Origin: Nitrospiraceae bacterium
GTDB taxonomy: Bacteria > Nitrospirota > Thermodesulfovibrionia > UBA6902
DNA length: 64,000 nucleotides
Assembly (NCBI GenBank): GCA_003599275.1
Contig: QZJG01000004.1
Location: 87-64,086, forward strand
Direction of reading: 5' to 3'
Below are positions 3,470 to 31,575 of this stretch, one piece after another. Under the pieces are notes generated by a model. That model was not told the origin of the DNA, did not search any database, and saw only the letters and a program-made list of their open reading frames with translations. Position numbers and translations under genes: made by a program. Every line of letters starts with the position of its first letter. The first letter of the stretch is position 1.

Positions 3470-4444
3470 ATGATAAACGGAAAGACAGTTTTGATAACCG
3501 GCGGCACCGGTTCTTTTGGAAAGAAATGCACGGAAATAATTCTAAAGGAATACAAGCCGAATAAATTGATCATCTTCAGCCGGGATGAACTGAAACAGTT
3601 TGAAATGTCGCAGGTCTTTTCAGAGAAAAAATACCCCTGCCTTCGGTACTTTCTCGGAGATGTACGAGACAAAGACAGGCTCTACAGAGCGTTTGACCGT
3701 GTAGATTATGTTATTCACGCTGCAGCCCTGAAGCAGGTCCCGGCCGCAGAGCGGAATCCTTTCGAAGTCATAAAAACAAATATTCTCGGGGCAGAGAACA
3801 TTATCAACGCGGCCATAGACAGGGAGGTGAAAAGGGTGGTTGCCCTGAGCACTGACAAGGCAGCAAACCCGATCAACCTCTACGGCGCAACTAAGCTTTG
3901 TTCCGATAAACTTTTTATTGCAGGGAACTCTTATTCGGGAGCTCACGGGACAAGGTTTTCTGTTGTCAGGTACGGAAATGTCGTGGGCAGCAGGGGGAGC
4001 GTTATCCCGTTCTTTAAAAATGTAAGAAAGACAGGGACTATGCCGATCACCGACCCTGAGATGACACGCTTCTGGATAACCCTTGAGCAGGGAGTTGATT
4101 TTGTTCTTAAATGCCTTTCAATGACTGTCGGCGGCGAACTTTTTGTCCCCAAGATACCGAGTATGAACTTAATGGATCTTGCAAAAGCGATCGCCCCTGA
4201 CTGCAAATATGAAACTGTCGGAATAAGGCCGGGTGAGAAAATACATGAGGTCATGATAACTGAAGACGATTCCAGGCATACACTGGAATTTGATGATTTC
4301 TATATCGTTGAGCCAGAGTTCGACTGGTGGTCGAGTGATCGTCATATATCAAATGGCGGGCAGCCTGTTAAAGATGGATTCAGGTACGCAAGCAATACAA
4401 ATGACAGGTGGCTCTCGGTAGACGACCTGAAAAAATTGATTTAG
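3470..4444 (+). CDS. pseB: UDP-N-acetylglucosamine 4,6-dehydratase (inverting), PseB/FlaA1
   Basis: Near-colinear with Helicobacter FlaA1: ITGGTGSFGK, SRDELKQ, HAAALKQVP, STDKAANPINLYGATKLCSDKLF, VVRYGNVVGSRGSVIPFF, IRPGEKIHE. Confidence 0.92.
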   Translation: MINGKTVLITGGTGSFGKKCTEIILKEYKPNKLIIFSRDELKQFEMSQVFSEKKYPCLRYFLGDVRDKDRLYRAFDRVDYVIHAAALKQVPAAERNPFEVIKTNILGAENIINAAIDREVKRVVALSTDKAANPINLYGATKLCSDKLFIAGNSYSGAHGTRFSVVRYGNVVGSRGSVIPFFKNVRKTGTMPITDPEMTRFWITLEQGVDFVLKCLSMTVGGELFVPKIPSMNLMDLAKAIAPDCKYETVGIRPGEKIHEVMITEDDSRHTLEFDDFYIVEPEFDWWSSDRHISNGGQPVKDGFRYASNTNDRWLSVDDLKKLI

Positions 4445-4482
4445 TATTAAAACGAAACATCTTATGCCTTAACACATAACTA

Positions 4483-5691
4483 ATGATACCTTACGGCAGA
4501 CAATGGATAGATGATGATGATATAAAGGCGGTTGTCGATGTCCTGCGCTCAAATTTCATCACTCAGGGGCCGAAAATAGATGAGTTTGAAAGGGTGCTTG
4601 CCGAAAGCTGCGGGGCAAAATACGCAGTAGCGGTAAATTCAGGCACCTCCGCGCTTCACATCGCCTGCCTTGCCGCCGGAACAGGAAAAGGAGATGACGT
4701 CATAACGTCACCCATCACTTTTATAGCTTCAGCCAACTGCGCGGCATACTGCGGTTCAAGGCCTGTTTTTGCCGATATCAATACTCGAACATACAATATA
4801 TCCGTTAGCAAGATAGAGAAGAAAATAACGGACCGCACGAAGATAATCATACCTGTGGATTTCGCAGGCCAGAGCGCTGACATGGAGCCTGTTTATATTC
4901 TGGCAAAAGAGAAGGGCAAGGAATTCAATAAGAAGATATTTGTTATCGAGGACTCATCTCAGGCGCAGGGCTCTTATTATAAAGGCAAGGCTGTAGGCTC
5001 ATGCGCGTTCTCAGATATGACGGTCATGAGCTTTCATCCTGTAAAACATATCACGACCGGCGAAGGCGGTGCTGTGCTGACGAATGATGAAGAACTGTAC
5101 TGGAAGTTGAGGAAGTTTAGAAACCACGGCATAACAAATATCCCCGGAGATTTTGTAAACAGGGAAGAGGCCTTTCAGCATGTCGAAGGGGAATTATCAG
5201 AAGCGCTTAACCCGTGGTACTACGAGCAGATAGACCTCGGATATAACTACAGGATAACAGATATACAGTGCGCACTTGGAATATCGCAGATGAAGAAACT
5301 GAACAGGTTCATAAAGCGGCGTCGCGAGATAGTCAGCATGTATAACGAATTTTTCGGCAGGATTGAAAATATTCAAACCCCTTATGAGTCTCCTGACTGT
5401 GACAGCAACTTTCATCTTTATATCCTTCTGGTTGAGTGGGCGAGGTTCGGCACGACAAGGGCGAAGTTCATGGCCGGGCTGAAGAAGAAAGGGGTGCATA
5501 CGCAGGTACACTACATACCAGTGCACACACAGCCTTTTTACAGGAAGAATTTCGGAACCGGATGGGGCGACTGCCCGAATGCTGAAGAATATTACCGAAA
5601 ATGCCTTTCAATCCCCATATACCCAGCAATGACGGACGATGATATAAAAAACGTCGCTGAAGCAATACGAGGAACTCTGAATGCCGGATAA
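4483..5691 (+). CDS. pseC: UDP-4-amino-4,6-dideoxy-N-acetyl-beta-L-altrosamine transaminase (DegT/DnrJ/EryC1 family)
   Basis: MIPYGRQWIDDDDI start, NSGTSALH, SFHPVKHITTGEGG (PLP-lysine region), and its position directly after pseB. Confidence 0.9.
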   Translation: MIPYGRQWIDDDDIKAVVDVLRSNFITQGPKIDEFERVLAESCGAKYAVAVNSGTSALHIACLAAGTGKGDDVITSPITFIASANCAAYCGSRPVFADINTRTYNISVSKIEKKITDRTKIIIPVDFAGQSADMEPVYILAKEKGKEFNKKIFVIEDSSQAQGSYYKGKAVGSCAFSDMTVMSFHPVKHITTGEGGAVLTNDEELYWKLRKFRNHGITNIPGDFVNREEAFQHVEGELSEALNPWYYEQIDLGYNYRITDIQCALGISQMKKLNRFIKRRREIVSMYNEFFGRIENIQTPYESPDCDSNFHLYILLVEWARFGTTRAKFMAGLKKKGVHTQVHYIPVHTQPFYRKNFGTGWGDCPNAEEYYRKCLSIPIYPAMTDDDIKNVAEAIRGTLNAG

Positions 5692-7201
5692 GATACTTTT
5701 GATAAGGCCGCAGAACGTTTACAACTATAACAATTATCCGCCGTTAAATCTTATCAGCATAGGCTCTGCGCTGAAGACAGCCGGATATGACGTGAAAATA
5801 ATAAATTGCGCCTTTGAGAAAAAGCCCCTGGAAGTCATCGGCAGAGAGCTGAACGGCGCATTGTTTGCGGGCATATCCCTTCTTACATCAGAGGCCCCTG
5901 ACGCCTACCGTATAATGCAATATATCAAAGAGATCTCAGATGTGCCTGTTGTTGTAGGAGGCTGGCACTGCACGTTATTTCCTGAGCAGATGGCAGGATG
6001 CGAATATGTTGACTACGTGGTTGCCGGAGAAGGAGAAGAGCATATCGTCAATGTTGCAGAGATGCTGAAGAACGGAGGAACGCGGGATAATAAAATTTAT
6101 CATAAAATAAACCTGGATCTTGATAGCCTTCCTCTGACCGCCTATGACTTAGACGAACACATAGAGCGGTCTATCGGCAATTATCTGACAGACAAGCTTT
6201 CAGAATATGTCAGCCATCCTATGAGATGGCTTCCTTATGAATCAAGCAGGGGATGCCCCTCGCTCTGCACCTTCTGCATTAATGTTGTGACAGATAACAG
6301 GCGTTACAGAAAGAAGAGCGCGGCAAAGGTTCTCTCAGAGATAGGGCATATAATAAAAAAATATAAGCTCACGCACTTGAAGATAGTAGACGACAATTTC
6401 TTTGTAGATATCAAACGCGTCAGGGAGATATGTCGGGGGATGATCGACATGGGTTTGAATATAACCTGGGACGGGGAATGCCGCTGCGATTATTTCAGGG
6501 ACGGGATGCTTGATGATGAAACACTGAAACTGTGCAGGAGATCGGGGCTTATCCAGTTGACGCTTGGGATCGAATCGGGCTCTCCCCATACTCTTGAGCT
6601 TATGAAGAAAGGCATCACGCCCGAGCAGGCGGAAAATGCCGTACGGAAGTGCGATGAACACAAGATAATAGCGAGGTCATCATTTATACTTGAGATCCCC
6701 GGGGAGTCTCTGGATGACATAAAGCAGACCATATCTTTTGTAAACAAGCTCAGGCGATATAAATATTTTACCTGCGGGGTCGGGACCTTCAGGCCTTATC
6801 CAAAGTGCGAATTGACAGAGAGGCTTTTAAAGGATGGCTATCTTACAGAGCCTTTAAATTTCAAAGAATGGACTGACAGAAATATTATTAATATGTATAC
6901 ATCAGCGGAGTACATCAGGCCCTGGCAGGTCAACGGGAAATATTCTGAAAGCGCCGCATACTATCTGAATATGGAGTCTGCCGTGAGGCTTGGAAACTTT
7001 CAGATTGACAGGAGGCTTGACAGGGTCAAGAACAGCCTCTTTATGTTTTTTGCAAAGTTGCGAAACGGGCTCATGTTTTATTCTTTCCCCTTTGACAAAA
7101 ATTTATACAAGAGATTTCTTTCAGCTTTTTACGAAAGAAGGCAGGAGCTTGAAAAGGGCGGCGCTTATCCGCTGGCTGACAGGAAAGAAGCGCGTCAGTG
7201 A
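5681..7201 (+). CDS. B12-binding domain radical SAM protein (class B)
   Basis: N-terminal cobalamin-binding-like Rossmann region (PVVVGGWHCT), then SRGCPSLCTFC (CxxxCxxC) and LGIESGS. It overlaps the pseC stop by 11 nt and the next gene by 4 nt. Confidence 0.85.
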   Translation: MPDKILLIRPQNVYNYNNYPPLNLISIGSALKTAGYDVKIINCAFEKKPLEVIGRELNGALFAGISLLTSEAPDAYRIMQYIKEISDVPVVVGGWHCTLFPEQMAGCEYVDYVVAGEGEEHIVNVAEMLKNGGTRDNKIYHKINLDLDSLPLTAYDLDEHIERSIGNYLTDKLSEYVSHPMRWLPYESSRGCPSLCTFCINVVTDNRRYRKKSAAKVLSEIGHIIKKYKLTHLKIVDDNFFVDIKRVREICRGMIDMGLNITWDGECRCDYFRDGMLDDETLKLCRRSGLIQLTLGIESGSPHTLELMKKGITPEQAENAVRKCDEHKIIARSSFILEIPGESLDDIKQTISFVNKLRRYKYFTCGVGTFRPYPKCELTERLLKDGYLTEPLNFKEWTDRNIINMYTSAEYIRPWQVNGKYSESAAYYLNMESAVRLGNFQIDRRLDRVKNSLFMFFAKLRNGLMFYSFPFDKNLYKRFLSAFYERRQELEKGGAYPLADRKEARQ

Positions 7202-8178
7202 AGATCCTCGTTGTCGGAACAGGCTCGATCGGGACAAGACATATAAAGAACCTTTATGAACTCGGACACGAGATTTTCGCAGTTGATACAAATGTAGAGA
7301 ACCTTAAGCAGGTTTTGTCACTGACGAAAAACAGCTATAATTCTCTTGAAGAAGCGCTGAAGGGCAAGCCTGACGCGGCATTCATCTGCACATATAGTAA
7401 TGACCATATGAGGCCGGCGCTAAAATGTGCTGAAGCGGGATGCCATCTTTTTATTGAAAAACCGCTTTCGACAAGCCTTGAGGGCATTCAGGAACTCCTG
7501 GATATTGCAGAGAGTAAGAAGTTGATCACAATGGTCGGCTGCAACATGCGGTTTCATCCGGCTGTGTCATATATCCATAAACAAATAAAATCCAATCGCT
7601 ACTTCACAAAACCTCTCTGGGGAAACTTTGAAACAGGCTATTTTCTGCCTTTTGATAAAGAGGACTATCAAAAGAGTTATAAGGCAAACAGGAGTATGGG
7701 CGGTAATCTGATACTTGATGCAATTCATGAGCTTGATTACGCTATATGGTTTCTCGGAGAACCGCAAGAGGTTATATGCAGCAAAGGGATCATATCTTCG
7801 TTGAAGATAGACACGGAAGACCATGTTGAGATGATTGTTAAATTCCGCTCAGGAGCCGTATGCACGATGCACATGGACTATCTGCAGCATGGCTATTCCA
7901 GGAGATGTAAAATTGTTTGCGAGGAAGGCACCGTGGTATGGGATTTTGTCGGAGGCAGCATCGGGAGCGTGACGGTCCAAGATGGGAAATGGGCATGGAA
8001 GGATATGAAGGTTGATATATCTTACAATCAGATGTATATAGATGAGGCCAGGTATTTCATGGACTGTGTTTCGGCAGGCAGGGCTACATTCAATTCAATA
8101 CGCGAGTCTATGCAGTCTTTAAAGCTCGCGCTTGCTGCTGACAGATCCAGCAGCACAAATCAGTGGGAGAAGGTCTGA
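7198..8178 (+). CDS. Gfo/Idh/MocA family NAD(P)-dependent oxidoreductase
   Basis: MKILVVGTGSIGTRH dinucleotide-binding N-terminus, EKPL motif and a C-terminal alpha/beta domain. The GTG start forms a GTGA overlap with the upstream gene. Confidence 0.85.
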   Translation: MKILVVGTGSIGTRHIKNLYELGHEIFAVDTNVENLKQVLSLTKNSYNSLEEALKGKPDAAFICTYSNDHMRPALKCAEAGCHLFIEKPLSTSLEGIQELLDIAESKKLITMVGCNMRFHPAVSYIHKQIKSNRYFTKPLWGNFETGYFLPFDKEDYQKSYKANRSMGGNLILDAIHELDYAIWFLGEPQEVICSKGIISSLKIDTEDHVEMIVKFRSGAVCTMHMDYLQHGYSRRCKIVCEEGTVVWDFVGGSIGSVTVQDGKWAWKDMKVDISYNQMYIDEARYFMDCVSAGRATFNSIRESMQSLKLALAADRSSSTNQWEKV

Positions 8179-8190
8179 AAGGGTTGTCCT

Positions 8191-9057
8191 ATGAGAAAGG
8201 TTATCGGCGTAATAACGGCAAGAATGGCTTCAACAAGGCTTCCCGGCAAGGTTATGCAGAAGATGGCAGGGAAATCCGTATTTGCTCATCATGCTGAAAG
8301 GATGATGCATGTGCGCGGGCTTGACGGCGTTTTTTTAGCGACATCGACAGATCCTTTAAATAAAACGCTACTAGAGGAGGCGGAAAACCTCGGCTGCGGC
8401 TGGTATGCAGGAGCAGAGCAGGATATCGTTGACCGCCATATCAAGCTCTGCGAAAGGGAAAAGGCTGACGCAGTTATACGGGTCACCTGTGATTCGCCGA
8501 TATTTGATATCGGGAGCGCTTCACGATTTATAGAGGAATTCAAAAAAGAATACAGGGATTATATTTATGTATCCAATATGACGATGATCCAGGGGACTCT
8601 CTCGGAGCTTATCTCTCATAATGCCCTCATGGAGGTCCACAAACATTATCGCGGCGCCGGGGTCTCGATGCATATAAAAGAGAATATGGATAAATTCAGG
8701 ACTCTGGGTATAGAGATCGATATTGATCTCTGCCGCCCGGAGTACCGCCTGACCATAGATGAATTAATAGATATAGAGATGATAAGGCATATATATGAGG
8801 CGCTCTATAGAGGACAGCCGCTCAGCCTTCATGAGGTTTACACATGGCTTGATGATAATCCGCATATCGCGAAGATGAATATGCACGTCGGGATAAAGGG
8901 GTGCGAGGTCCAGAGCGCGAATTTAACAGAGAAACCACTCTACTCAATTGTTGCATCAGGCAGCAGATATGTCATACTCGATGAACAGAAACGGCTTGTT
9001 GAGCCGGAATCTTTCTTGCAAAAGATGGCAGAGCTCTTTCCGGGTCTGAAGGCATAG
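8191..9057 (+). CDS. SpsF/acylneuraminate-cytidylyltransferase-like nucleotidyltransferase (candidate CMP-activating enzyme)
   Basis: VIGVITARMASTRLPGKV N-terminus is typical of the CMP-KDO-synthetase-like SpsF group. It lies inside the Pse operon. Confidence 0.75.
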   Translation: MRKVIGVITARMASTRLPGKVMQKMAGKSVFAHHAERMMHVRGLDGVFLATSTDPLNKTLLEEAENLGCGWYAGAEQDIVDRHIKLCEREKADAVIRVTCDSPIFDIGSASRFIEEFKKEYRDYIYVSNMTMIQGTLSELISHNALMEVHKHYRGAGVSMHIKENMDKFRTLGIEIDIDLCRPEYRLTIDELIDIEMIRHIYEALYRGQPLSLHEVYTWLDDNPHIAKMNMHVGIKGCEVQSANLTEKPLYSIVASGSRYVILDEQKRLVEPESFLQKMAELFPGLKA

Positions 9058-9062: not shown

Positions 9063-10352
9063 ATGTCATCGCGTTATAAAAGATCAGAAGAACTGCTTGA
9101 AAAGGCATTGAAGATCATTCCCATCGGGTCTCAGACCTTCAGCAAAAGCATTACTCAATATCCTCTCGGAGTTTCTCCGCACTTTATAAAAAAAGGCAAA
9201 GGCTCTCATGTATGGGATGTTGACGGGAACGAGTATATCGATTTTGTAAATGCGCTGTGCGCCATAACTCTCGGCTATAATGACCCTGATGTCACTAATG
9301 CAGTAAAGGCTCAGCTTGAAGACGGCACTATATTCACCCTCCCGCATGAGCTGGAGATAAAGGTCTCTGAAAAGGTCATTGAGATAGTGCCGTGTGCCGA
9401 GATGGTGCGATTCGGCAAGAACGGCTCGGATGTCACTTCCGGCGCAATAAGGCTGGCACGGGCACATACAAAGAGAGACCATGTTGCTGTATGCGGTTAT
9501 CACGGCTGGCAGGACTGGTATATAGGCTCTACAAGCCGCAATCTCGGAGTACCAAAAGCGGTTTCTGATCTGACACATGTCTTTACATATAATGACTTAA
9601 ATTCTTTGCACAGGATCTTCAAGGAGTATTCCGGACAAATAGCCGCTGTTATCATGGAGCCGATGAATGTTAAAGAACCGGTAGATAATTTTCTGGCAAA
9701 AGTTAAGGAATTGACGCATGAGAACCAAGCTGTCTTTATCTTTGACGAGACGATCACCGGTTTCCGTTTTGCAGAAGGCGGCGCTCAGAAATATTTTGGA
9801 GTTATCCCTGACCTCGCAACATTCGGCAAAGGATTGGCAAACGGGTATCCTGTATCAGCAATCGCGGGTAAGGCAGAGATAATGAGGATGATGGAGGAGA
9901 TATTCTTCTCCTTTACCTTTGGCGGCGAGACCTTGTCACTTGCCGCTACGCTTGCTGCAATGACAAAACTGCAGAGAGAGCCTGTGATAAAGACGCTATG
10001 GTCTCAGGGATCAAAAGTTATCAAAGGGACAAATGCCTTGATCGAAAAATATGCGTTGGGAAATGTCTTGTCAACCGCCGGCAAGGACTGCTGGTCATTT
10101 CTGTTGTTCAAAGATACGGACGTTTATTCCCAATGGGAACTGAAGACCCTTTTTTTACAGGAAGTATTTGCCAGAGGAGTTCTGACCGTCGGGACTCATA
10201 ACATGAGCTATGCCCACACAGATGAAGATATCTCAGCACTCTTAAATTGTTACGATGAGGTTTTTGGAATACTCAAGAACGCCATAACAAATAATAGATT
10301 AAAGGAACTATTGAAGACAAAGCCATTAGTTCCTTTGTTTAAGATAAGGTGA
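9063..10352 (+). CDS. Class-III aminotransferase, glutamate-1-semialdehyde 2,1-aminomutase-like
   Basis: GSHVWDVDGNEYIDF, FDETITGFR and the FGKGLANGYP PLP-lysine region. Confidence 0.85.
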   Translation: MSSRYKRSEELLEKALKIIPIGSQTFSKSITQYPLGVSPHFIKKGKGSHVWDVDGNEYIDFVNALCAITLGYNDPDVTNAVKAQLEDGTIFTLPHELEIKVSEKVIEIVPCAEMVRFGKNGSDVTSGAIRLARAHTKRDHVAVCGYHGWQDWYIGSTSRNLGVPKAVSDLTHVFTYNDLNSLHRIFKEYSGQIAAVIMEPMNVKEPVDNFLAKVKELTHENQAVFIFDETITGFRFAEGGAQKYFGVIPDLATFGKGLANGYPVSAIAGKAEIMRMMEEIFFSFTFGGETLSLAATLAAMTKLQREPVIKTLWSQGSKVIKGTNALIEKYALGNVLSTAGKDCWSFLLFKDTDVYSQWELKTLFLQEVFARGVLTVGTHNMSYAHTDEDISALLNCYDEVFGILKNAITNNRLKELLKTKPLVPLFKIR

Positions 10353-20895: not shown

Positions 20896-21797
20896 TCTTA
20901 AATTATGAACATATAGGATGCGATCTCTGCGGCTCTGCAAATTATAAGGTCAGGTACAGGAAACCGGATGTCGTACGCTGGATCAATCAGTTTGAGTTCC
21001 CCGTAGTGGAGTGCAGGGATTGCGGCCTGGTATATGTTAATCCCCGGCCGACCCCGGAATCAATGGCAGCCTATTATCCCAAAGGCTATCATTCCAATCG
21101 TGACAAGGAAAGGCACAGGCTGAGATATGAAGTTGAGGTTTCCCATCTTCCTCCTTTAAATAATGAAAGGGTTCTGGATATCGGTTGTGCTGAAGGTGAT
21201 TTCCTGATGCATTTAAAGGATAAGTTCTCCGGCATACAGGCATTCGGCTGTGACTATTATTCTGACAAGGTCAAATCACCGGACATTAAATTTTTCAATA
21301 AGGCCCTGAACGACTGCAATTTTGAGAATTCCTTCTTTGACGTTATAACCGCATGGGCGGTATTTGAACATCTGCATTACCCGGATAAGTACTTTGCGGA
21401 AGTCCACAGGATTCTCAAGAGCGGAGGAAGATTTATCTTCCAGGTAACCAATTCTGAAAGCTTATTCAGTAAGAAATGCTACAGTGAAGATATACCGAGG
21501 CATTTGTTTCACTTCAGTAAAAAAACACTCTCCTCTTACGCGGAAAAACACGGATTTAAATTCAGGAAGATTTTGTATGACAACAGTGTGTTTGACGGAA
21601 GGGGATACGGTGCCTTCCGTATTTTATTCTGGAAATTATTAAATATTACATGGGAGGATTTGTATTATAAAAATATTAATGTCTTTCAGCATGCAGTCCT
21701 GAAGTTTGGCTCTCTGATCGACAGAATAGTTTTTTTTACGGACTGGGAAAGAAGGCTCGGTATGTCCGGTATGATAATTGCTGAATTTCAAAAATAA
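20892..21797 (+). CDS. Class I SAM-dependent methyltransferase with N-terminal zinc ribbon
   Basis: CDLCGS...CRDCG (2x CxxC), VLDIGCAEGDF (SAM motif I), FDVITAWAVFEHL. Confidence 0.85.
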   Translation: MILNYEHIGCDLCGSANYKVRYRKPDVVRWINQFEFPVVECRDCGLVYVNPRPTPESMAAYYPKGYHSNRDKERHRLRYEVEVSHLPPLNNERVLDIGCAEGDFLMHLKDKFSGIQAFGCDYYSDKVKSPDIKFFNKALNDCNFENSFFDVITAWAVFEHLHYPDKYFAEVHRILKSGGRFIFQVTNSESLFSKKCYSEDIPRHLFHFSKKTLSSYAEKHGFKFRKILYDNSVFDGRGYGAFRILFWKLLNITWEDLYYKNINVFQHAVLKFGSLIDRIVFFTDWERRLGMSGMIIAEFQK

Positions 21798-24641: not shown

Positions 24642-25571
24642 ATGATACCCAAAAGCAATGAGATCAGGTTTGAAGTATCAACGAGATGCAATTATAACTG
24701 CATTATCTGCCCCAGGGAAAAACTTATCAGAAAGAAAGAGACGATGGGCCTGAAGCTTTTCAAAGAGCTGTTCGACCGGATAAGAGCAGAAACTGGCCAG
24801 TATGATACATTGACATTCCCCGGCATGGGCGAGCCTCTTATGGACAGGTCCCTCGGCAAAAAGATCGAATATACCAAAAAGAAAAACTTTACCGTGCTGA
24901 TGCTGACTAATGCTTTTTTTCTCACGGTTGATAAGTTCAGGGAACTTGAAGCACACGGCCTTGACTCTATAAGGGTGAGCCTTTATGGAGACACACCCGA
25001 GTCTTATAAAAAGGTGCACAGGGTGCTTGCTGCCGGGACTTTCGAGAAGATAAAGAAGAACCTCACAAAGATCTCAAAGATAAAGAGATCAACACAGCTT
25101 CTTCTTACATATAATGTTGTTGAAGGGATCAATGATACTGAAACGCAGCAATGGATAGACTACTGGTCTGATAAGGCTGACCTGCTGGAAGTCTGGCGCC
25201 CGCATAACTGGGCCGGCGGCAGGGGCTACAGGAATGTGCAGGAAAAGAAGCTCAAGACATGCGGCCGCCCTTTCAATACTCCGCTTCAGATCCAAGTGGA
25301 CGGCACTGTGAATATGTGCTGTTTTGATTTTAACGGGGAACTGCTTCTCGGCGACCTCAGGACTCAGTCTCTTAAAGATATATTCAGATCCCCGATGTTC
25401 AAGAAGATAGTTAAAAGCCACACTTCGGGCAATTTCAAAAAGAGCTGCCTCATCTGCGAGGACTGCGACCAGAGGAACTCTGACAAGTCTGATGTGATGG
25501 TATATAACTCAAAGTTCGATATAAAGGAGAGAGTGAAGACCGTATCCACTACCTATCAGAACATAGTTTAG
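24642..25571 (+). CDS. Radical SAM protein with C-terminal SPASM/twitch-like Cys cluster
   Basis: STRCNYNCIICP (CxxxCxxC), GEPLM, and a C-terminal CGRP...MCCFD...CLICEDCDQ. Confidence 0.85.
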   Translation: MIPKSNEIRFEVSTRCNYNCIICPREKLIRKKETMGLKLFKELFDRIRAETGQYDTLTFPGMGEPLMDRSLGKKIEYTKKKNFTVLMLTNAFFLTVDKFRELEAHGLDSIRVSLYGDTPESYKKVHRVLAAGTFEKIKKNLTKISKIKRSTQLLLTYNVVEGINDTETQQWIDYWSDKADLLEVWRPHNWAGGRGYRNVQEKKLKTCGRPFNTPLQIQVDGTVNMCCFDFNGELLLGDLRTQSLKDIFRSPMFKKIVKSHTSGNFKKSCLICEDCDQRNSDKSDVMVYNSKFDIKERVKTVSTTYQNIV

Positions 25572-25579: not shown

Positions 25580-25619
25580 GGAGGGCAGGTTTAATAAACC
25601 TGCCCTCCCTTATTATTCG
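25580..25619 (+). terminator. Rho-independent terminator
   Basis: Perfect 13-bp stem GGAGGGCAGGTTT / AAACCTGCCCTCC (25580-25592 / 25596-25608) with an AAT loop, followed by the T-rich CTTATTATT. It starts 9 nt after the stop of the radical SAM/SPASM gene. Confidence 0.7.
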
Positions 25620-25634: not shown

Positions 25635-26615
25635 ATGTTATCAAACATATTGAAGGTCATCCTGGGGCATTTCATAATAATACTTATCTATTATCCGTGG
25701 CGCCTTGCTGAAAAGATCAGCCGGATAAATTTAGGTGCATCAGGCAGATCGCATTATCACATCATGAAAGTCTTCAGGGCGTTATTTAATTCATACTTTG
25801 TCGATATAAGCTACAGGAACAGGATATCAAAGACCGACCTTGCTTTAAAACTCAGATTGGATCTCTGCCAGAACAACCAGCAGTGGTTTTTCCGCTTGAG
25901 AGGTGGATACGAAGAGGAATGGCTGAGGTTGATTTCCGCAGGACTTGAAAGCTCGGAGGGCTTTCTGGACATAGGTTCAAATATCGGAGTCTATGCCCTT
26001 ACTATGGCCCAAGCCTATCCGGAGAAGAAGGTCACAGCCATAGAGCCTTTAAGAGACAACTACGATTTACTCAGACATAATGTGTCACTGAATTCATTGA
26101 CCAATGTCACGGCAATTAATGCGGCGGTCTCAAGCCAAAAAAGCCACAAAATTAAATTTTTCCCTAACCCGATACATGACGGAGGCGGGTCAATAATTGA
26201 AAGCACTTCCTATCGGACCGGTGATGTAATCATTAATGCAGGGCAATACATAGCCGGTGACAAGGATTTTATCAGTGAAGTAAGCGTTGATAACGTCAGT
26301 ATTGACGGCCTTATAGAATCAAAGAGTGTTATAAAGATTGATGTTGAGGGCGCCGAGGCTTCTGTTATCGAGTCAGGCATAAATGTTTTCAAGAAAGGGC
26401 TGGTTGATGTCATGGTCGTTGAGGTGCTTCACGAAACAATTGACAAGGTTGTGGCCCTCGCCGATGAATTCGGCTTTGACAGTTTTGCAAAAGGCTCTGA
26501 CATTCCCATTAATGTTGGAGCCAGGCTGGATCATTTTGTCGGCAATATCGCATGCCTGAGGAGAGCGTCACTCGATTATGATAATTACAGAAAAAGAATT
26601 GCACTGCTGCGATGA
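25635..26615 (+). CDS. FkbM family methyltransferase
   Basis: FLDIGSNIGVYALTMA and KIDVEGAE are signatures of the FkbM methyltransferase family. Confidence 0.8.
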   Translation: MLSNILKVILGHFIIILIYYPWRLAEKISRINLGASGRSHYHIMKVFRALFNSYFVDISYRNRISKTDLALKLRLDLCQNNQQWFFRLRGGYEEEWLRLISAGLESSEGFLDIGSNIGVYALTMAQAYPEKKVTAIEPLRDNYDLLRHNVSLNSLTNVTAINAAVSSQKSHKIKFFPNPIHDGGGSIIESTSYRTGDVIINAGQYIAGDKDFISEVSVDNVSIDGLIESKSVIKIDVEGAEASVIESGINVFKKGLVDVMVVEVLHETIDKVVALADEFGFDSFAKGSDIPINVGARLDHFVGNIACLRRASLDYDNYRKRIALLR

Positions 26616-28024
26616 GTGATTTTTCCTTTGAATTATTGTCAGCAAGGTTTATTGCCGCGGCTATACGTTCAGCGCCCGAAAAGCTGGTATCCCCTATCTT
26701 TGCCTCTCCGTTGAGCGCGCGCAGTCCTGACCTCTGCATATTGTGGCATCCGGGCTACAGAAAAAAACATGGCCTTAGGCTTTTTGTAGAATCTACGGCC
26801 TCACTGGTTGAGGCTTTTTTAAGGGGCCTTGTTAAATTGCTGATACACCCGACATCATTTGGCTATGCTCTCTATGGAGCAATAAGGGAGTCAATTTTAG
26901 TTATACCACCTATGTGCGGTTCGGAAGCTCCTGACGGTAAATATAAAACACCATATATTGAAACTGATAAAAATGATGCGTTATTTGTCTTCGGGCTGAA
27001 AAGGGACTTTGGGAAAAAGCCGAAAGATGTTGATGAATTGCCAATTACAGAGAAGGCAGCTTTAATGTTTATTTTGATGAAGCTCGGGATGTCAGCGTTA
27101 CTGAAAATTAAGGGGGGGAGGCTTGAAAAGGGCCTGCTTTTACTGAAATGGTTTTCATGGGTACTGGGCCTTCAATGGCTTCATGATTATTATCTTGAAG
27201 ATACATTATCAAAAATTGTTGTGACTTATGATATAAAAAAGATCGGCTGCATACACGAGATGCATTTTTACGCAAGGGTCGTCTGGAGGGTGGCGGCAAG
27301 ATATAATTGTAAAGGGTACACGATACAGCATGCGGCTTTCAGCCCGGGCAAGAGATGGTATTTTTGTTTCCCGGAAGAGCTTGAAAGCGGGCTGAAACTT
27401 CCCGATGTAATGTACGTTTACAGTAATAGGGTCTCTGACCTCCTGAAACAGTATTATAAGAACACCGCTTTTTATTCAGGCTGCAGCACACGCTACTCGC
27501 ACTGGAAAGAGATTGCAGGGAGCGACAAAAGGGGCGGATATTTTCTCTTTGTGGGTGCGCTTGCCAGGTTTGACAATGATGTGCTGATCTCTGTGCTTCG
27601 GAAGCTTGCCGATACTCTTCATGAAAATGTACTGCTGAGATTAAGGCTGCATCCCTTTGCGGACCTGAGCAGAGGCTCAGAGAGATGGATAAACTCAGGA
27701 CAGAGGAAAGGTGTTATAAGCTTATCAAAAAGCACATCATTGAAGGACGACATAAAGAATGCTTCAGCCGTAATCGGTATGAGCACAACTGTTTTGGAAG
27801 AGGCGCTTATCATGGGCCGGCCCGTGATACAGATAACCCATCCCGACTACCTTGAGTACATTGATATTGACGGGATCGCCGGGGTACAAAAACTGGGTCA
27901 CATGGACGTGACTTTAAAGACACTTGAAGACGCTGCCGGCTCGACGGTTGATGTTGACAAGATGAGAAGCAGGCTTGGCCTTAACAACCCGGTCATTACC
28001 TATAAAAGATTGTTTGAGAAATGA
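26612..28024 (+). CDS. Uncharacterised protein, GT-B-like C-terminal half (candidate surface-carbohydrate transferase)
   Basis: 470 aa with ATGA overlaps at both ends. YFLFVGALARFD...LRLRLHP...ASAVIGMSTTVLEEALIMGRPVIQI resembles a GT-B C-domain. Function unknown. Confidence 0.6.
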   Translation: MSDFSFELLSARFIAAAIRSAPEKLVSPIFASPLSARSPDLCILWHPGYRKKHGLRLFVESTASLVEAFLRGLVKLLIHPTSFGYALYGAIRESILVIPPMCGSEAPDGKYKTPYIETDKNDALFVFGLKRDFGKKPKDVDELPITEKAALMFILMKLGMSALLKIKGGRLEKGLLLLKWFSWVLGLQWLHDYYLEDTLSKIVVTYDIKKIGCIHEMHFYARVVWRVAARYNCKGYTIQHAAFSPGKRWYFCFPEELESGLKLPDVMYVYSNRVSDLLKQYYKNTAFYSGCSTRYSHWKEIAGSDKRGGYFLFVGALARFDNDVLISVLRKLADTLHENVLLRLRLHPFADLSRGSERWINSGQRKGVISLSKSTSLKDDIKNASAVIGMSTTVLEEALIMGRPVIQITHPDYLEYIDIDGIAGVQKLGHMDVTLKTLEDAAGSTVDVDKMRSRLGLNNPVITYKRLFEK

Positions 28025-29010
28025 AGATGTTAAGAGAAGATGAACAGCCAGATAATGGGTTAAGCAGAACATCTCCTTCCGTCAGTATCATTGTGAACTG
28101 TTTAAACGGGGAGCAATACCTGAGGGAGGCTTTAGACAGTATTTTTTCCCAGACATTTAAAGATTGGGAGGTCATTTTCTGGGAGGATAAAGACTCGACA
28201 GACAAAAGCGGGGAGATAGCCAAAAGCTACGGGGGCAAATTAAGGCATTTTAAGGCCAAAGAGAAGCTGCCTTTATATGGTGCAAGAAATCAAGCCATAA
28301 CCAAGGCAAAAGGCAGGTATATAGCGGTCCTTGACTGTGATGATATATGGATGCCGACAAAACTTGAGGAACAGATCCCTCTTTTTGAAGCAGATAAAGA
28401 AGTCGGACTGGTCTACAGCAACTGTATCCTCTTTAACGGGCGGGGCAGGGAAAAGCGGTTCTTTGATGTTGTAAGGCCGGAGAGGGGACGTGTATTTGAA
28501 AAGCTGCTTTTCAGTAATTTTATTAATACCCAGACCGTTGTAATAAGAAGGGACGTTTTAGATGGCATTGGCCTCTTTGACGGGCGACTGCACATGTCCG
28601 GTGATTATGACGCTTATCTCAGAATAGGCTTTAAATGGAAATTAGATTATGTAAATAAGCCGTTGGCAAGGTACAGGGTGCACAGCAGCAGCATGACATT
28701 GACAGACGGCAGGAGATTACTGGCCCGCGAGATCGGCCTCACTATTAAGAACCTGAGAGTGACTGTCCCTGAAATTGATACCAGATACGCTGACGGCATT
28801 AAGTTCCTTGCAAGGCGAAAGGATATCCAGACATCCCTCATGAGCTGGGAGGCTGGTGACAGAAAAAGCGCCCGTCACATGATCAGGCAGTTTATCTTTG
28901 ACAGCATTTACTGTTCAATTTTATATTTTCTGATGTTCTTTTCTTATCGCATCGTCTTTAAACCTCTTCACAGGCTCTATCAGAAGAACCCGGTGTCGGA
29001 TCTGGACTGA
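28021..29010 (+). CDS. Glycosyltransferase family 2 (GT-A)
   Basis: VSIIVNCLNGEQYLREALDSIFSQTFKDWEVIFWEDKDSTD, ARNQAI and LDCDDIW (DxD). Confidence 0.88.
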   Translation: MKMLREDEQPDNGLSRTSPSVSIIVNCLNGEQYLREALDSIFSQTFKDWEVIFWEDKDSTDKSGEIAKSYGGKLRHFKAKEKLPLYGARNQAITKAKGRYIAVLDCDDIWMPTKLEEQIPLFEADKEVGLVYSNCILFNGRGREKRFFDVVRPERGRVFEKLLFSNFINTQTVVIRRDVLDGIGLFDGRLHMSGDYDAYLRIGFKWKLDYVNKPLARYRVHSSSMTLTDGRRLLAREIGLTIKNLRVTVPEIDTRYADGIKFLARRKDIQTSLMSWEAGDRKSARHMIRQFIFDSIYCSILYFLMFFSYRIVFKPLHRLYQKNPVSDLD

Positions 29011-29025: not shown

Positions 29026-30204
29026 TTGTCAATACTATACTGCGCAGAGAAAGTCTTAAAAGTGAAGAAATACAATATCATCATCTGGGAAACATACAGC
29101 ACAATGGGCGGCGGGCAAAAAGTCAGCCTTGATATTTTAGACGCCCTGAAGGACAAATACCGCTGCATATTTTTCGTGCCTGAGGAAGGAGACTTGACGG
29201 GCAATCTCAGGGCAAGGGGCATTGAATACAAAATACTTCCGATCGGCTCTTACAGCGACGGCCGGAAGGGACTGAAGGATATACTCACAATAGGCCTCTT
29301 CTTCCCCGGCGTCCTTATGACCGCATACCGGCATGTGAAGAAAAACAGGATATCCCTTATCTATTCAAACAGCTCGAGGTCTTTTATCTGGTCCTCAATT
29401 ATCGGGAGACTTCTATCCATTCCCGTTATCTGGCACGTACATAATTTTGTTGCAGACAATAAAACACTATTTATTCTTAACCGCCTTGGGAAAATCGGGA
29501 GTGTAAGAAAGGTCATATTTGTTTCCAGGGCGGTCAAAGAACAGTTCCCTCTTTTGAAGGACAAAGCCGAAATAATTTACAACGGGCTGAACATCGGAAG
29601 GTTTATGAAGGGGGGCTCCGGAGCAGACAATAAAAATAAATTGTCCGTTCCTCCTTCCGTAAAAATAATATCGACCATCTCCTGGATATCAAGGCCCAAG
29701 AAAACAGAGATTTTTCTGAAGGCTGTCCCTTACGTCCTGAATAGATACGGAGGGGCCCATTTCCTGGTGGTGGGCGGCGTGAAAAAAGGACATGAGAATT
29801 ATCATGCCTCCCTGCTCAAACTCGTTCGAAAGCTGGGGATAACTGACCATGTAACTTTCACCGGACAACGCAATGATATCTCGGATTTACTGAAAAGTAT
29901 CCATATAAATTGCGTTACGTCACTTGAGACATATTCATTGACGATACCGGAATCATATTGCTTTGGAGTCCCCGTTATAGGGCCTGATACCGGCGGCCCG
30001 GTTGAGCTTATAAAAGACCGCGAGACAGGACTGATATATAAATTCGGTAATGAAAAAGACCTCGCCGAAAAGATATGCCTTCTCCTCGGGAACAAGGAAC
30101 TGCACGCGGTCATGAGCAGAAACTGCAAAGCTGCTGCAAGAGAGTTCGACGTCGCAAAGTTTGATGACAGTATAAGGGCGGCAGTTTGGCGGATCATAGA
30201 TTAA
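29026..30204 (+). CDS. Glycosyltransferase family 4 (GT-B)
   Basis: GGGQKV N-terminal motif and CVTSLETYSLTIPESYCFGVPVIGPDTGGPVELI (EX7E region). The start is ambiguous: TTG 29026 in the track, or GTG 29062 giving MKKYNIII. Confidence 0.82.
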   Translation: MSILYCAEKVLKVKKYNIIIWETYSTMGGGQKVSLDILDALKDKYRCIFFVPEEGDLTGNLRARGIEYKILPIGSYSDGRKGLKDILTIGLFFPGVLMTAYRHVKKNRISLIYSNSSRSFIWSSIIGRLLSIPVIWHVHNFVADNKTLFILNRLGKIGSVRKVIFVSRAVKEQFPLLKDKAEIIYNGLNIGRFMKGGSGADNKNKLSVPPSVKIISTISWISRPKKTEIFLKAVPYVLNRYGGAHFLVVGGVKKGHENYHASLLKLVRKLGITDHVTFTGQRNDISDLLKSIHINCVTSLETYSLTIPESYCFGVPVIGPDTGGPVELIKDRETGLIYKFGNEKDLAEKICLLLGNKELHAVMSRNCKAAAREFDVAKFDDSIRAAVWRIID

Positions 30205-30414
30205 TGCCTTGAGATACAAAAGAGTACTTCTTGTATTCCCTGGATTACTCGGGCCTTTGGCCATTATAGTAGCCAGGGCTTACGTCAGTGATTGGGTCCA
30301 GGGCAAATTAATGAGAAGCAGCATCTTGCGAAGAAATCTGAAAAAGATTTTTATGCGTATGGCAGGTTAATTCCCGGTCAAATCTGCTGTCCTGTTTCGT
30401 CCATCAAAAAAATT

Positions 30415-31575
30415 TTGAAAACCGCAATCATCCATGAATGGCTCGCAACCTTTGTCGGCTCAGAGAAGGTGTTTGAGCAGATTGCCGGACTCTATCCCGA
30501 TGCGGACCTTTATTGCCTTTTCGATTTCTTTTCGGAAGAGGACAGGCATTTTCTGCGTAACAGAAGGGTCCGTACCTCTTTTATACAACACCTTCCTTTT
30601 GCAAAAACGAAATACCGCTCCTACATGCCCCTCATGCCGTTTGCCGTTGAACGGTTTGACCTTTCCGGTTATGAATTGATCATATCAAGCTCTCATGCCG
30701 TTGCAAAAGGCATAAGGAAAAATCCTGACCAGCTCCACATCTGCTACTGCCATACCCCGATGCGTTATGCATGGGACCTGAGGGAACAATACCTGAAGGA
30801 ATCCGGGCTTGACAGGGGAATAAAGGGCCTTCTCGCACGGGCCGCCCTGGACCGTCTGAAGAAATGGGACATCAAGGCTTCGAAGAGAGTCGATTATTTC
30901 ATCGCCAATTCTCATTACATCAGGGACAGGATAAAAAGGGCCTATGGAAGGGACGCAGACGTGATTTATCCTCCCGTTGATGTAGAGAGTTTTGAATTGT
31001 GCGCAAAGAAGGAAGACTTCTTTCTCGCGGTATCAAGAATGGTGCCCTATAAAAAAGTGGATTTGATAGTCGAAGCCTTTTCGGAATCGGGCCTGCCACT
31101 TGTCGTAATCGGCGACGGACCGGATTTTGAAAAAGTGAAAAGCAGGGCAAAAAAAAATGTCGGGTTTTTAGGCTATCAGGAAGCCAACGTGCTTGTTGAT
31201 TATATGCAAAAAGCCAGGGCATTCATCTTTGCGGCTGAGGAAGACTTCGGCATACTGCCTGTTGAAGCACAGGCGTGCGGAACGCCTGTGATAGCTTACG
31301 GAAAAGGCGGCGTGACCGAAACGGTGATACCCGTAAATCAGGGGTTAGGGGGCAGGGGCCAGGGGTTAGAAATAAAAAATCCCACCGGCGTGTTTTTTTA
31401 TGAGCAGACACCGGCTGCATTAATCGATGCGGTAAAGAGGTTTGAAGCTGTAGAGGACAAATTCAATCCCTATGAGACAAGAAAGAACGCCGAGCGGTTC
31501 GGCATTGAAAGGTTCCAGAGGGAATTTACGGATTTTGTAAGCAGAAAGATCGCCGAGTTCTCCCCCCCATCCTAA
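30415..31575 (+). CDS. Glycosyltransferase family 4 (GT-B) carrying a Gly-rich in-frame insert
   Basis: A TTG at 30415 gives the family-typical MKTAIIHEWL start, whereas the track ORF begins at 30292. AEEDFGILPVEAQACGTPVIAYGKGGVTETV is followed by the extra PVNQGLGGRGQGLEIKN before TGVFFYEQT. Confidence 0.8.
   Translation: MKTAIIHEWLATFVGSEKVFEQIAGLYPDADLYCLFDFFSEEDRHFLRNRRVRTSFIQHLPFAKTKYRSYMPLMPFAVERFDLSGYELIISSSHAVAKGIRKNPDQLHICYCHTPMRYAWDLREQYLKESGLDRGIKGLLARAALDRLKKWDIKASKRVDYFIANSHYIRDRIKRAYGRDADVIYPPVDVESFELCAKKEDFFLAVSRMVPYKKVDLIVEAFSESGLPLVVIGDGPDFEKVKSRAKKNVGFLGYQEANVLVDYMQKARAFIFAAEEDFGILPVEAQACGTPVIAYGKGGVTETVIPVNQGLGGRGQGLEIKNPTGVFFYEQTPAALIDAVKRFEAVEDKFNPYETRKNAERFGIERFQREFTDFVSRKIAEFSPPS
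31339..31380 (+). repeat. In-frame G-rich 21-bp tandem duplication inside the GT4 gene
   Basis: CAGGGGTTAG occurs at 31339-31348 and again at 31360-31369 (21-nt period, 7 codons). It encodes QGLGGRG / QGLEIKN. Confidence 0.7.

Follow-up and report, generated by a model that had tools for sequence, protein, structure and literature searches.

[quoted passage not shown] Further decoration of such nonulosonic acids (NulOs) is known from Ca. Kuenenia stuttgartiensis, where N-acyl exchange and methylation have been shown at the CMP-sugar stage, with a deacetylase and a formyltransferase acting at the CMP-NulO level (bioRxiv 10.64898/2026.04.20.719630). Amide formation has been described for the C. 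jejuni HS:2 capsule, for which the PLP aminotransferase Cj1437 makes the phosphorylated partner, the ATP-grasp amide ligase Cj1438 uses this phospho-amine, and the phosphatase Cj1435 acts afterwards (PMC11800379).

The window analysed here, a 64,000-nt stretch from the metagenome-assembled genome of an uncultured Nitrospiraceae bacterium, contains a 29-kb, single-strand island of 24 co-directional + strand ORFs (3470-31575) downstream of a winged-helix (wHTH) regulator gene (Table 1). The ORF list agrees exactly with the original prediction on this point, and every overlapping junction that it had named was reproduced: ten 4-nt overlaps (7198, 10349, 12895, 13887, 14810, 15592, 16829, 20892, 26612 and 28021) and one of 11 nt (5681), a total of 11 that indicates tight coupling. 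The overlap at 14810 requires an internal ATG (the longest-ORF start is at 14675), which is also where the JGI gene call for this IMPase starts (261 aa; JGI gene calls and Pfam lists are those of the 114.7-kb contig Ga0104756_1000066, metagenome 3300007352). One clear terminator and one sizeable gap had been predicted and were found: the hairpin at 25580-25608 is the sole strong + strand terminator-like site within the island, and the widest spacing between neighbouring genes inside it spans 136 nt (21798-21933). The remaining terminator-like matches in the island have stems of 5-8 bp, and such weaker matches were not in excess of shuffles (19 vs 13.2±3.3; 21 vs 17.4±4.3). The island probably comprises two transcription units divided by the hairpin at 25580-25608. 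Compositionally, the A/T-richness suggested for 16.8-30 kb holds in part, with GC lowest at 16.3-24.6 kb (0.41-0.42) and island genes below the other 21 window genes in mean GC (0.451 vs 0.491; Mann-Whitney p = 6.5e-5) and GC3 (0.50 vs 0.56; p = 1.3e-4). The PseG fusion gene shares this minimum with a GC of 0.406, and the NeuB-to-PIG-L segment (11.8-16.3 kb) is host-like (0.47-0.52).

Table 1 Features of the island and its upstream region (positions in the window)
Feature	Position	Strand	Evidence
Promoter-like site	2650-2678		5' of winged-helix regulator gene
Winged-helix (MarR/EPS-like) regulator, 195 aa	2688..3275	+	PF13412 HTH_24 42.6 bits; TIGR04176 MarR_EPS 50 bits (below cut-off 88)
PseB, inverting UDP-GlcNAc 4,6-dehydratase	3470..4444	+	TIGR03589 534.7 bits (cut-off 407.75)
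PseC-type aminotransferase	4483..5691	+	TIGR03588 498.9 bits (cut-off 423.5); Schiff-base motif SFHPVK
B12-binding radical SAM enzyme, probably C-methyltransferase (module B)	5681..7201	+	PF02310 + PF04055; motif CPSLCTFC
Gfo/Idh/MocA sugar oxidoreductase (module B)	7198..8178	+	PF01408, PF22725; L042 orthologue 59% identical
Divergent CTP_transf_3 cytidylyltransferase, presumed CMP-NulO synthetase (module B)	8191..9057	+	PF02348 61 bits
Class-III (HemL-like) aminotransferase (module B)	9063..10352	+	PF00202 170.8 bits; PRK06209 441.9 bits (below cut-off 486)
PseG (UDP-sugar hydrolase) with C-terminal GNAT fusion, PseH-equivalent	10349..11830	+	
NeuB-family nonulosonate synthase, third clade	11840..12898	+	Fails PseI and NeuB cut-offs
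ATP-grasp ligase (cassette C)	12895..13890	+	PF15632, PF02655, PF21360
Extended SDR, epimerase/reductase type (cassette C)	13887..14813	+	PF01370 106 bits; present in most cassette loci
IMPase/CysQ-family phosphatase (cassette C)	14810..15595	+	PF00459 139 bits; motifs DPIDGT, WDIAA
PIG-L/LmbE-family de-N-acetylase (cassette C)	15592..16275	+	PF02585 99 bits; motif AHPDDE
Second GNAT N-acetyltransferase	16287..16832	+	PF13302 86.7 bits
P644, putative AsnB/beta-lactam-synthetase-fold adenylating amide/amidine synthetase without Cys1 nucleophile	16829..18763	+	
P700, rare GT-B-fold protein, candidate nonulosonate transferase	18793..20895	+	Predicted structure, Foldseek
Class I SAM methyltransferase	20892..21797	+	PF13489 78 bits
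Wzx-type flippase	21934..23400	+	PF01943 86.5 bits
GT4 glycosyltransferase	23429..24637	+	PF00534 100.9 bits
Radical SAM/SPASM enzyme	24642..25571	+	PF04055 + PF13186; motif CNYNCIIC; L042 orthologue 56% identical
Intrinsic terminator-like hairpin	25580..25608	+	13-bp stem, 8 G-C pairs, then T-rich tail
FkbM-family methyltransferase	25635..26615	+	TIGR01444 96 bits (cut-off 37.7)
P470, soluble, perhaps GT-B-like	26612..28024	+	120 representative homologues
GT2 glycosyltransferase	28021..29010	+	PF00535 95.8 bits
GT4 glycosyltransferase	29026..30204	+	PF00534 84.8 bits
GT4 glycosyltransferase	30292..31575	+	PF00534 82 bits

Functionally, PseB, PseC and PseG passed the curated NCBI equivalog cut-offs. 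The dehydratase scored 397.6 bits against H. pylori PseB (2GN4), vs 220-229 against CapE/Pen and 121-130 against PglF, and it carries the motif TDK and the Tyr-type catalytic motif YGATK; we assign it as an inverting enzyme, not the retaining type that would have spoken against the original prediction. In the fusion protein, the PseG half (residues 1-284) reached 316 bits (TIGR03590, cut-off 153.55), and the GNAT half (PF13302, residues 353-482) only 36 bits with the PseH model; in the related locus L005 a formyltransferase gene takes the place of this GNAT, which agrees with its position being the N4-acylation step. Compared with the H. pylori/C. jejuni pathway, three steps are thus covered by orthologues above cut-off, and the remaining three are filled by the GNAT, the NeuB-family synthase and the CTP_transf_3 enzyme. 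The window differs in that its PseH-equivalent is fused to PseG, its synthase falls outside the PseI clade, and its cytidylyltransferase gave no match to the PseF model (TIGR03584; closest PDB match 6OEW, 52 bits; 66% identity to an orthologue in the Planctomycetaceae locus L042), and in being non-flagellar, with Wzx, several glycosyltransferases and ~12 further enzymes. The "complete pseudaminic-acid pathway" originally claimed therefore stands at the family level and fails for the synthase clade and the PseF match. Every enzyme family named in that prediction was retrieved via Pfam/NCBIfam or fold search, and the presence of PseB, PseC, PseG-GNAT, a NeuB-family synthase, a cytidylyltransferase, ~12 tailoring enzymes, Wzx and glycosyltransferases supports, at the sequence level, its assignment as a nonulosonic-acid glycan locus.

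Evolutionarily, the window NeuB scored below both cut-offs (NeuB_NnaB, 372.7 vs 399.65 bits; PseI, 314.7 vs 340.25 bits) and, in a NeuB-family tree in which no characterised LegI was placed, fell into a clade of 100% support (clade 3) apart from canonical PseI. In the phylogeny that had been proposed as a test of PseI identity, the synthase thus does not group with PseI, and it has SpsE as its nearest characterised relative and best PDB match (242 bits, 40% identity; C. jejuni PseI, 180 bits, 34%), which bears on one of the refuting conditions of the original prediction. Against this, clade 3 is paired with an inverting PseB. A clade-3 NeuB and a cut-off-passing inverting PseB occur together in three loci, namely the window, L003 (486 bits) and Geomonas propionica (537 bits), the last a cultured organism. 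In L007, L009, L010 and L019, canonical PseI (391-503 bits) adjoins cassette C orthologues (45-62% identity), and in L042 canonical PseI (449 bits) lies beside module B, a GNAT and P644, with gene order as in the window. Because of this pairing, and because the tailoring modules stand beside canonical PseI elsewhere, Pse-type chemistry stays the best reading, and we consider Pse-type stereochemistry likely, though unproven.

The stronger of two alternatives, which we nevertheless regard as rather unlikely, is that an sps-like UDP-linked route, with the clade-3 NeuB as a Leg-type synthase, yields a different stereoisomer, either legionaminic acid or one such as 8-epi-Leg or an Aci-type sugar. 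It would explain why the window NeuB is nearer to SpsE than to C. jejuni PseI, why it gains a higher score with the NeuB_NnaB model than with that of PseI, and why JGI automated annotation calls two clade members LegI ("N,N'-diacetyllegionaminate synthase"); the locus also has an epimerase-type SDR, and the B. subtilis sps genes, although of Pse-like families, yield Leg (PMC7439481). However, stereochemistry in B. subtilis tracks the retaining, Met-triad dehydratase SpsM, for which pseB was at best a partial substitute, whereas the window has a PseB with a Tyr triad that clears the inverting-dehydratase cut-off by a wide margin; SpsE is just 40% identical and itself falls outside clade 3; and elsewhere the same tailoring modules accompany canonical PseI.

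The tailoring complement had been called unusually large: the ~12 extra enzymes are indeed present, but their assembly is not unique, as modules of it recur across phyla. Module B consists of B12-radical-SAM, Gfo/Idh/MocA, cytidylyltransferase and class-III aminotransferase genes; its radical SAM enzyme is 63% identical to the L042 orthologue, in conserved position, and its aminotransferase has orthologues in L005 (77%) and Oceanobacillus L045 (61%). Cassette C consists of ATP-grasp, SDR, IMPase and PIG-L genes plus a GNAT, and ATP-grasp orthologues (50-71%) were found in at least 33 loci, nearly always with an adjacent IMPase gene. The AsnB/beta-lactam-synthetase-fold protein and the rare GT-B-fold protein are further recurrent parts. 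Catalytic motifs were intact in every tailoring enzyme checked; no characterised locus matched this one, and no literature on these modules was found. In mycothiol and bacillithiol synthesis, a PIG-L deacetylase (MshB or BshB) is followed by an ATP-dependent ligase and the GNAT MshD, a succession on an N-acetylated amino sugar that cassette C resembles by analogy of chemistry only, its ligase being ATP-grasp rather than Cys-tRNA-synthetase-like and its substrate a presumed nonulosonate (the top NCBIfam matches of the window PIG-L protein, BshB1 and BshB2, are both below cut-off). The Ca. Kuenenia cluster likewise has a deacetylase among its NulO genes, the same logic as the proposed deacetylation and re-acylation, but it has a LegB/LegC/LegG core, a formyltransferase instead of the ATP-grasp ligase, and no IMPase, module B or P644. 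The HS:2 system shares the ATP-grasp, aminotransferase and phosphatase classes, but its ATP-grasp is TupA-like (PylC-like/ATPgrasp_Ter in the window), its phosphatase is not of the IMPase family, and its substrate is the glucuronate carboxylate of the growing polymer. From the sps system, as described in PMC7439481, genes of the ATP-grasp/IMPase/PIG-L, module B and AsnB-like kinds are all absent.

Outside the Actinobacteria, wherever the contig was long enough, cassette C always lay in a locus carrying a NeuB-family gene (L003, L005-L010, L013, L019, L036, L044 and L045), in most cases directly abutting it; PseG was not detectable near the cassette in Geomonas. Around 20 Nocardiopsis-group genomes carry the ATP-grasp and IMPase pair without glycan genes, adjoining PEBP protein and PucR regulator genes in the two loci examined, so this chemistry need not be NulO-specific. 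Such independence would suit the less probable of the two alternatives, in our view improbable, that the extra enzymes make one or more building blocks apart from the nonulosonate (an amino sugar or aminocyclitol as a second activated unit, or an amide group, not a sugar, for another glycan residue) or that cassette C works at an earlier stage, on the precursor hexose; consistent with it, a Halorussus glycan locus has ATP-grasp and PIG-L and no NeuB gene was seen there, the best models for the Gfo/Idh/MocA enzyme, both below cut-off, are inositol 2-dehydrogenase (114 bits) and UDP-GlcNAc 3-dehydrogenase (92.7 bits), and L003 and L006 have a second, very divergent NeuB adjacent to their CTP_transf_3, which implies that module-B-like genes can serve a second ulosonate pathway. 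Against this stand the company that cassette C keeps with NeuB outside the Actinobacteria, the translational coupling of tailoring and core genes, and the single NeuB and single cytidylyltransferase of the window, so that the module B CTP_transf_3 is needed for the nonulosonate itself.

Structurally, the P644 model (AF2 pLDDT 92) matched TsnB9 (2.8e-17), beta-LS, CarA and AsnB in Foldseek; the protein carries the PP-loop SSGWDS, and its ~158 homologues are all annotated "hypothetical". The second GNAT gene stands before P644 or a transferase gene in L003, L005, L041 and L042. P700 and P470 had no name in the original prediction. The P700 model (AF2 pLDDT 81; the JGI call has 684 aa, from an internal start) matched GT-B glycosyltransferases and 2-epimerases (E down to 5.6e-7); its homologues number only 14, hhalign gave 92.5% probability of remote homology to PF27878 proteins, and its slot in related loci is filled by PF27878 or KpsS/KpsC-like Capsule_synth proteins; by fold, remote homology and slot it is probably a nonulosonate transferase. 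For P470, family searches matched nothing, and faint Epimerase_2, Glyco_transf_4 and DUF6716 matches among family members point to a possible GT-B-like transferase. Wzx, with 12 partly overlapping hydrophobic stretches in a crude hydropathy scan, is the lone multi-TM protein of the island. As had been predicted, genes for Wzy, Wzz, a PGT or flagellar proteins were not found in the window (TM scan of the island; JGI Pfam lists for the remainder, in which Maf was likewise missing), and the window thus gives no information on acceptor or polymerase.

We posit that this locus makes, decorates and exports a sugar of the cell surface that resembles sialic acid and is most likely derived from pseudaminic acid. 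[quoted passage not shown] What each tailoring enzyme does, at which point and on which substrate, is in every case inferred from sequence. In module B, Gfo/Idh/MocA oxidation and class-III transamination could introduce an extra amino group, and the B12-radical-SAM enzyme a C-methyl group. Following the mycothiol-like logic, PIG-L would strip an N-acetyl group, the ATP-grasp ligase would re-acylate the freed amine, or otherwise make an amide, using an acid that may carry a phosphate, IMPase would take off this phosphate, and the SDR would alter either a stereocentre or an oxidation state. A free amine may be capped by the second GNAT, P644, lacking the glutaminase nucleophile, may form a further amide or amidine, and the two SAM methyltransferases may methylate. 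P700 is the candidate CMP-nonulosonate transferase, while the GT4 and GT2 enzymes and P470 would build the rest of the oligosaccharide on a lipid carrier for Wzx to flip, with genes elsewhere providing the acceptor, the initiating step and either polymerisation or ligation. The locus type is well known, and about half of its tailoring enzymes are conserved families without a characterised member, within a complement that, judged from these comparisons, is pieced together from three or more modules that recur across phyla.

The gene cluster spanning this part of the window (hereafter the island) is a nonulosonate glycan locus, that is, a system of an already known kind and not a categorically new one, and its sequence relationships suggest that the product is probably of pseudaminic (Pse)-type configuration. 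Judged by NCBI curated equivalog cut-offs, three core enzymes pass: PseB (TIGR03589, 534.7 bits versus a cut-off of 407.75), the aminotransferase PseC (TIGR03588, 498.9 versus 423.5), and the UDP-sugar hydrolase PseG (TIGR03590, 316 versus 153.55). PseB is, as originally predicted, an inverting UDP-GlcNAc 4,6-dehydratase/5-epimerase and not a retaining enzyme, since besides its equivalog match it aligns over its full length with H. pylori PseB (2GN4) at 397.6 bits and carries a Tyr-type YGATK motif. It also retains the TDK motif, scores far under the cut-off of the FnlA/CapE-type model (240 versus 730), and gave 220–229 bits against CapE/Pen-type and 121–130 bits against retaining PglF enzymes. 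The original prediction of a complete pseudaminic-acid pathway thus stands for PseB, PseC, and PseG, but not for the synthase, which falls outside the PseI clade, nor for the sole cytidylyltransferase of the locus, a divergent 288-aa CTP_transf_3 protein (PF02348, 61 bits, plus weak KdsB-subfamily matches) that gave no match to the PseF model TIGR03584 at E ≤ 0.01. Two Acetyltransf_3 GNATs are encoded in the island, one fused C-terminally to PseG, with 36 and 43 bits on the PseH model TIGR03585 (cut-off 93.1); because a formyltransferase gene takes the place of the GNAT after PseG in the related locus L005, the fused GNAT would correspond to the N4-acylation (PseH-equivalent) step. Catalytic motifs were intact in all proteins checked.

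The synthase, a NeuB homologue, scored under the cut-offs of both the NeuB_NnaB model (372.7 bits) and the PseI model TIGR03586 (314.7 bits, cut-off 340.25), and among solved structures it matched Bacillus subtilis SpsE at 242 bits, Campylobacter jejuni PseI at 180, and Neisseria meningitidis NeuB at 157. In a bootstrapped neighbor-joining tree of the NeuB family, built without any experimentally characterised LegI, it fell in a 100%-supported clade (clade 3) with metagenomic, Geomonas, and Oceanobacillus proteins, apart from the canonical PseI clade (96% support). Its grouping therefore bears out the original prediction only in part: the nearest characterised relative is a legionaminic acid (Leg) synthase, SpsE (40% identical), but clade 3 is separate, with SpsE as a weak sister (44% bootstrap), and the window's synthase may still equal PseI in function. 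This match with SpsE is what would favor a product that is Leg or another isomer, as SpsE yields Leg via a UDP-linked pathway of Pse-like families in B. subtilis (PMC7439481). In that pathway, however, a retaining, Met-triad dehydratase decides the outcome, and pseB in its mutant restored Leg not at all or only partly (PMC7439481); with its Tyr-type motif and its match to the PseB equivalog model, the window's enzyme does not have this SpsM-like character, so we consider a Leg-type product unlikely. A Pse-type product is still the best reading, because clade-3 synthases pair with an inverting PseB over the cut-off (in the window, in L003, and in the cultured Geomonas propionica), because orthologues of the ATP-grasp/SDR/IMPase/PIG-L genes (cassette C) adjoin canonical PseI in L007, L009, L010, and L019, and because the Planctomycetaceae locus L042, without cassette C, has the window's order of PseC, B12-rSAM, Gfo/Idh/MocA, CTP_transf_3, class-III aminotransferase, PseG-GNAT, synthase, GNAT, P644, transferase, and Wzx around a canonical PseI (449 bits). 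Since the same modules and gene order occur with either synthase, clade-3 and PseI enzymes are interchangeable in one genetic context. As this locus also shows, assigning PseI versus LegI by homology alone is unsafe. L003 (5700–7432) and L006 (1019–2742) each carry another NeuB-family gene, a very divergent one (329 aa, 26–27% identity with the window's homologue, clustering with PDB 6NCS), directly beside a CTP_transf_3 gene, so these two loci may make two different ulosonic acids.

Neither the literature nor the collections searched yielded a characterised locus with the same gene set, in keeping with the original prediction, and the supposedly unusual tailoring complement proved not to be a one-off, its extra genes being modules that recur in other loci and phyla. 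In module B (B12-rSAM, Gfo/Idh/MocA, CTP_transf_3, and class-III aminotransferase genes), the first three products are 59–66% identical to their L042 counterparts, and parts of the module recur in L003, L005, and Oceanobacillus. Cassette C lies in NeuB-containing loci, mostly directly adjoining the NeuB gene, in metagenome-assembled genomes of Desulfobacteraceae, Syntrophomonas, Bacteriovoracaceae, Opitutia, Verrucomicrobiae, and Methanomicrobiales, and it occurs with a clade-3 synthase in the cultured Geomonas propionica and Oceanobacillus profundus; partial cassettes on short Kiritimatiellae, Planctomycetota, and Methanoregulaceae contigs had no NeuB within view. The cluster of G. propionica (GCA_016458235.1; L044, 5530–14911) encodes PseB, PseC, CTP_transf_3, GNAT, ATP-grasp, clade-3 NeuB, SDR, IMPase, PIG-L, and a KpsS/KpsC-like Capsule_synth protein within an LPS-core-like region (heptosyltransferase and HldE-like genes), and no PseG homologue was detectable near it. 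In ~20 Nocardiopsis, Streptomonospora, and Glycomyces genomes (L012–L038), the ATP-grasp and IMPase genes stand alone as a pair, with nonulosonate and glycan genes absent within 10 kb, an arrangement that suggests a portable two-enzyme unit with a putative small-molecule role. In the two such loci examined, L025 (7822–11922) and L037 (6854–11738), genes for a PucR-type regulator and a PEBP/YbhB-family protein lie upstream of the pair, and these sole neighbors gave no clue to function. Searching the plasmid collection yielded neither a close copy of cassette C (best match 40%, on a Halorussus plasmid) nor a characterised locus. Nothing on these modules turned up in the literature either, where pseudaminic or nonulosonic acid was paired with ATP-grasp or deacetylase and where triamino nonulosonates and "PFTS" were covered too.

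Further downstream, the island encodes P644 and P700. The predicted structure of P644 (pLDDT 92) has the two-domain AsnB/beta-lactam-synthetase/TsnB9 architecture (Foldseek E-values of 2.8e-17 for TsnB9, 1e-16 for beta-lactam synthetase, and 4.7e-13 for AsnB) with the PP-loop SSGWDS. Its N-terminus, MSFSLEI, has no Cys at position 2 and thus no Cys1 nucleophile for glutamine hydrolysis, a feature that resembles beta-lactam and carbapenam synthetases. Approximately 158 homologues, mostly 50–70% identical and nearly all unnamed or labelled "hypothetical", were found in Scalindua, Omnitrophota, Elusimicrobia, Saganbacteria, and Planctomycetes. The P644 orthologues do not include the 650-aa PF27878 ("PFTS_polysacc") proteins that L003 and L005 encode (20–23% identity by MAFFT, BLASTP E = 0.33); instead, these are remote homologues of P700. 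For P700, a search of 5.8 billion proteins returned just 14 homologues, and its predicted GT-B fold, its remote PF27878 kinship, and its slot, which in related loci holds PF27878 or KpsS/KpsC-type Capsule_synth proteins, make it the strongest candidate for transferring the nonulosonate. P470 matched no known family, although its relatives give faint GT-B-like signals; compared with P700, it reached an hhalign probability of 24%. In L041 (1–21938), a trio of genes for a GNAT, P644 (65% identical to the window's), and P700 (41%) lies in a different locus with FkbH-like, ACP, KS-III, MaoC/KR, and DHQ-synthase-like genes and two B12-rSAM genes, a recurrence that argues for mobility of the trio between glycan- and lipid-like biosynthetic contexts. 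One GT4 gene of the window is followed after 4 nt by a radical SAM/SPASM gene (56% identical to its L042 orthologue), like the TIGR04157 "glycosyltransferase with radical SAM partner" pairing, although the GT4 scores 76.8 bits on that model, far under the cut-off of 400. Apart from the flippase Wzx (PF01943, 86.5 bits), no island protein is multi-TM. As originally predicted, Pfam revealed no Wzy, Wzz, initiating phosphoglycosyltransferase, or flagellar genes among the called genes of the window, nor was any flagellin or Maf/PseE-type transferase found in these 64 kb; genes for Wzy, Wzz, and the initiating transferase may lie in another part of the genome.

Positions of the island, its modules, and neighboring features in the window
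Feature	Position	Strand	Remark
Winged-helix protein gene	2688–3275		195 aa; upstream of the ORF run
Island	3470–31575	+	
Module B	5681–10352	+	
PseG-GNAT fusion gene	10349–11830	+	
NeuB homologue gene	11840–12898	+	
Cassette C	12895–16275	+	
P644 gene	16829–18763	+	
P700 gene	18793–20895	+	
Sizeable gap	21798–21933		136 nt
Wzx gene	21934–23400	+	
GT4 and radical SAM/SPASM genes	23429–25571	+	
Terminator-like hairpin	25580–25608	+	13-bp stem, 8 G-C pairs
P470 gene	26612–28024	+	
Mut7-C RNase-domain gene	33051–33551	−	
Inverted repeat	33250–33293		20-bp stem, near-perfect
Alpha-amylase-family region	36619–42872	−	two large genes

The window lies on contig Ga0104756_1000066 of JGI metagenome 3300007352, listed by NCBI as a metagenome-assembled genome of a Nitrospiraceae bacterium. 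ORF calling placed exactly 24 forward-strand ORFs in the island, and all junctions claimed in the original prediction were confirmed (ten 4-nt overlaps, one 11-nt overlap, and the one gap), with the 4-nt overlap at 14810 depending on an internal ATG that the JGI gene call also picks. The single clear terminator claimed was likewise recovered as the sole strong forward-strand site, the remaining terminator-like matches being short and not more numerous than in shuffled sequence. Mean GC is 0.451 in the island genes versus 0.491 in the other 21 genes of the window (p = 6.5e-5), a modest but significant depression with a mosaic profile: 0.41–0.42 in the PseG fusion gene and from 16.3 to 24.6 kb, and host-like from NeuB to PIG-L. 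Rfam and tRNA scans of the window gave no match. Beyond the island, the Mut7-C RNase-domain gene contains in its coding sequence an inverted repeat that occurs nowhere else in the window (2 arms observed versus 0.02 expected by chance), and the alpha-amylase-family genes, which adjoin a weak GT2-like 419-aa gene and are flanked by ion transporters, suggest compatible-solute or glucan metabolism unrelated to the island.

Mechanistically, we infer a route in which the core would convert UDP-GlcNAc to a CMP-activated 5,7-diamino-tetradeoxynonulosonate, with module B adding an amino group via oxidation and transamination and a methyl group via radical C-methylation. Cassette C could then remove an N-acetyl group, form an amide through its ATP-grasp enzyme with a possibly phosphorylated partner, and dephosphorylate the product, while a GNAT would cap the free amine, P644 would form an additional amide or amidine, and the two methyltransferases would methylate. 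The oligosaccharide would be assembled by P700, GT4, GT2, and P470 and flipped by Wzx. For cassette C and the GNAT, a precedent is the mycothiol pathway, in which deacetylase, ligase, and GNAT act in this order. The logic of cassette C also has a precedent in the deacetylation and re-acylation on CMP-nonulosonate in Ca. Kuenenia (bioRxiv 10.64898/2026.04.20.719630), and that of its ATP-grasp and IMPase in C. jejuni Cj1438/Cj1435, where ATP-grasp amidation using a phospho-amine is followed by a phosphatase (PMC11800379). Tentatively, the product might be an undescribed Pse-type nonulosonic acid with an extra acetylated amino group and/or a B12-rSAM-derived C-methyl group ("higher-carbon"), and with one native N-acetyl group exchanged for a ligase-installed acyl or aminoacyl group.

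Nonulosonic acids influence the surfaces of bacteria, recognition by phages and the immune system, and the matrix of biofilms, and to our knowledge the enzymes that diversify and, especially, transfer them are largely unknown. The value of this locus lies in its catalogue of tailoring and transfer modules, since it unites recurrent uncharacterised modules with a recognisable Pse-type core, and offers concrete candidates both for novel chemistry of N-acyl exchange and for a family of nonulosonate transferases that would be new. Being cultured and carrying both cassette C and a clade-3 synthase, G. propionica and O. profundus provide a route to testing these ideas. If they are true, P700/PF27878 would be a new CMP-nonulosonate transferase family, and cassette C, whose deacetylase, ATP-grasp, and phosphatase genes range from Nitrospirota to Methanomicrobiales, would join the AsnB-fold P644 and the P700/PF27878 GT-B proteins as new families diversifying sialic-acid-like sugars, common to bacteria and methanogenic archaea.
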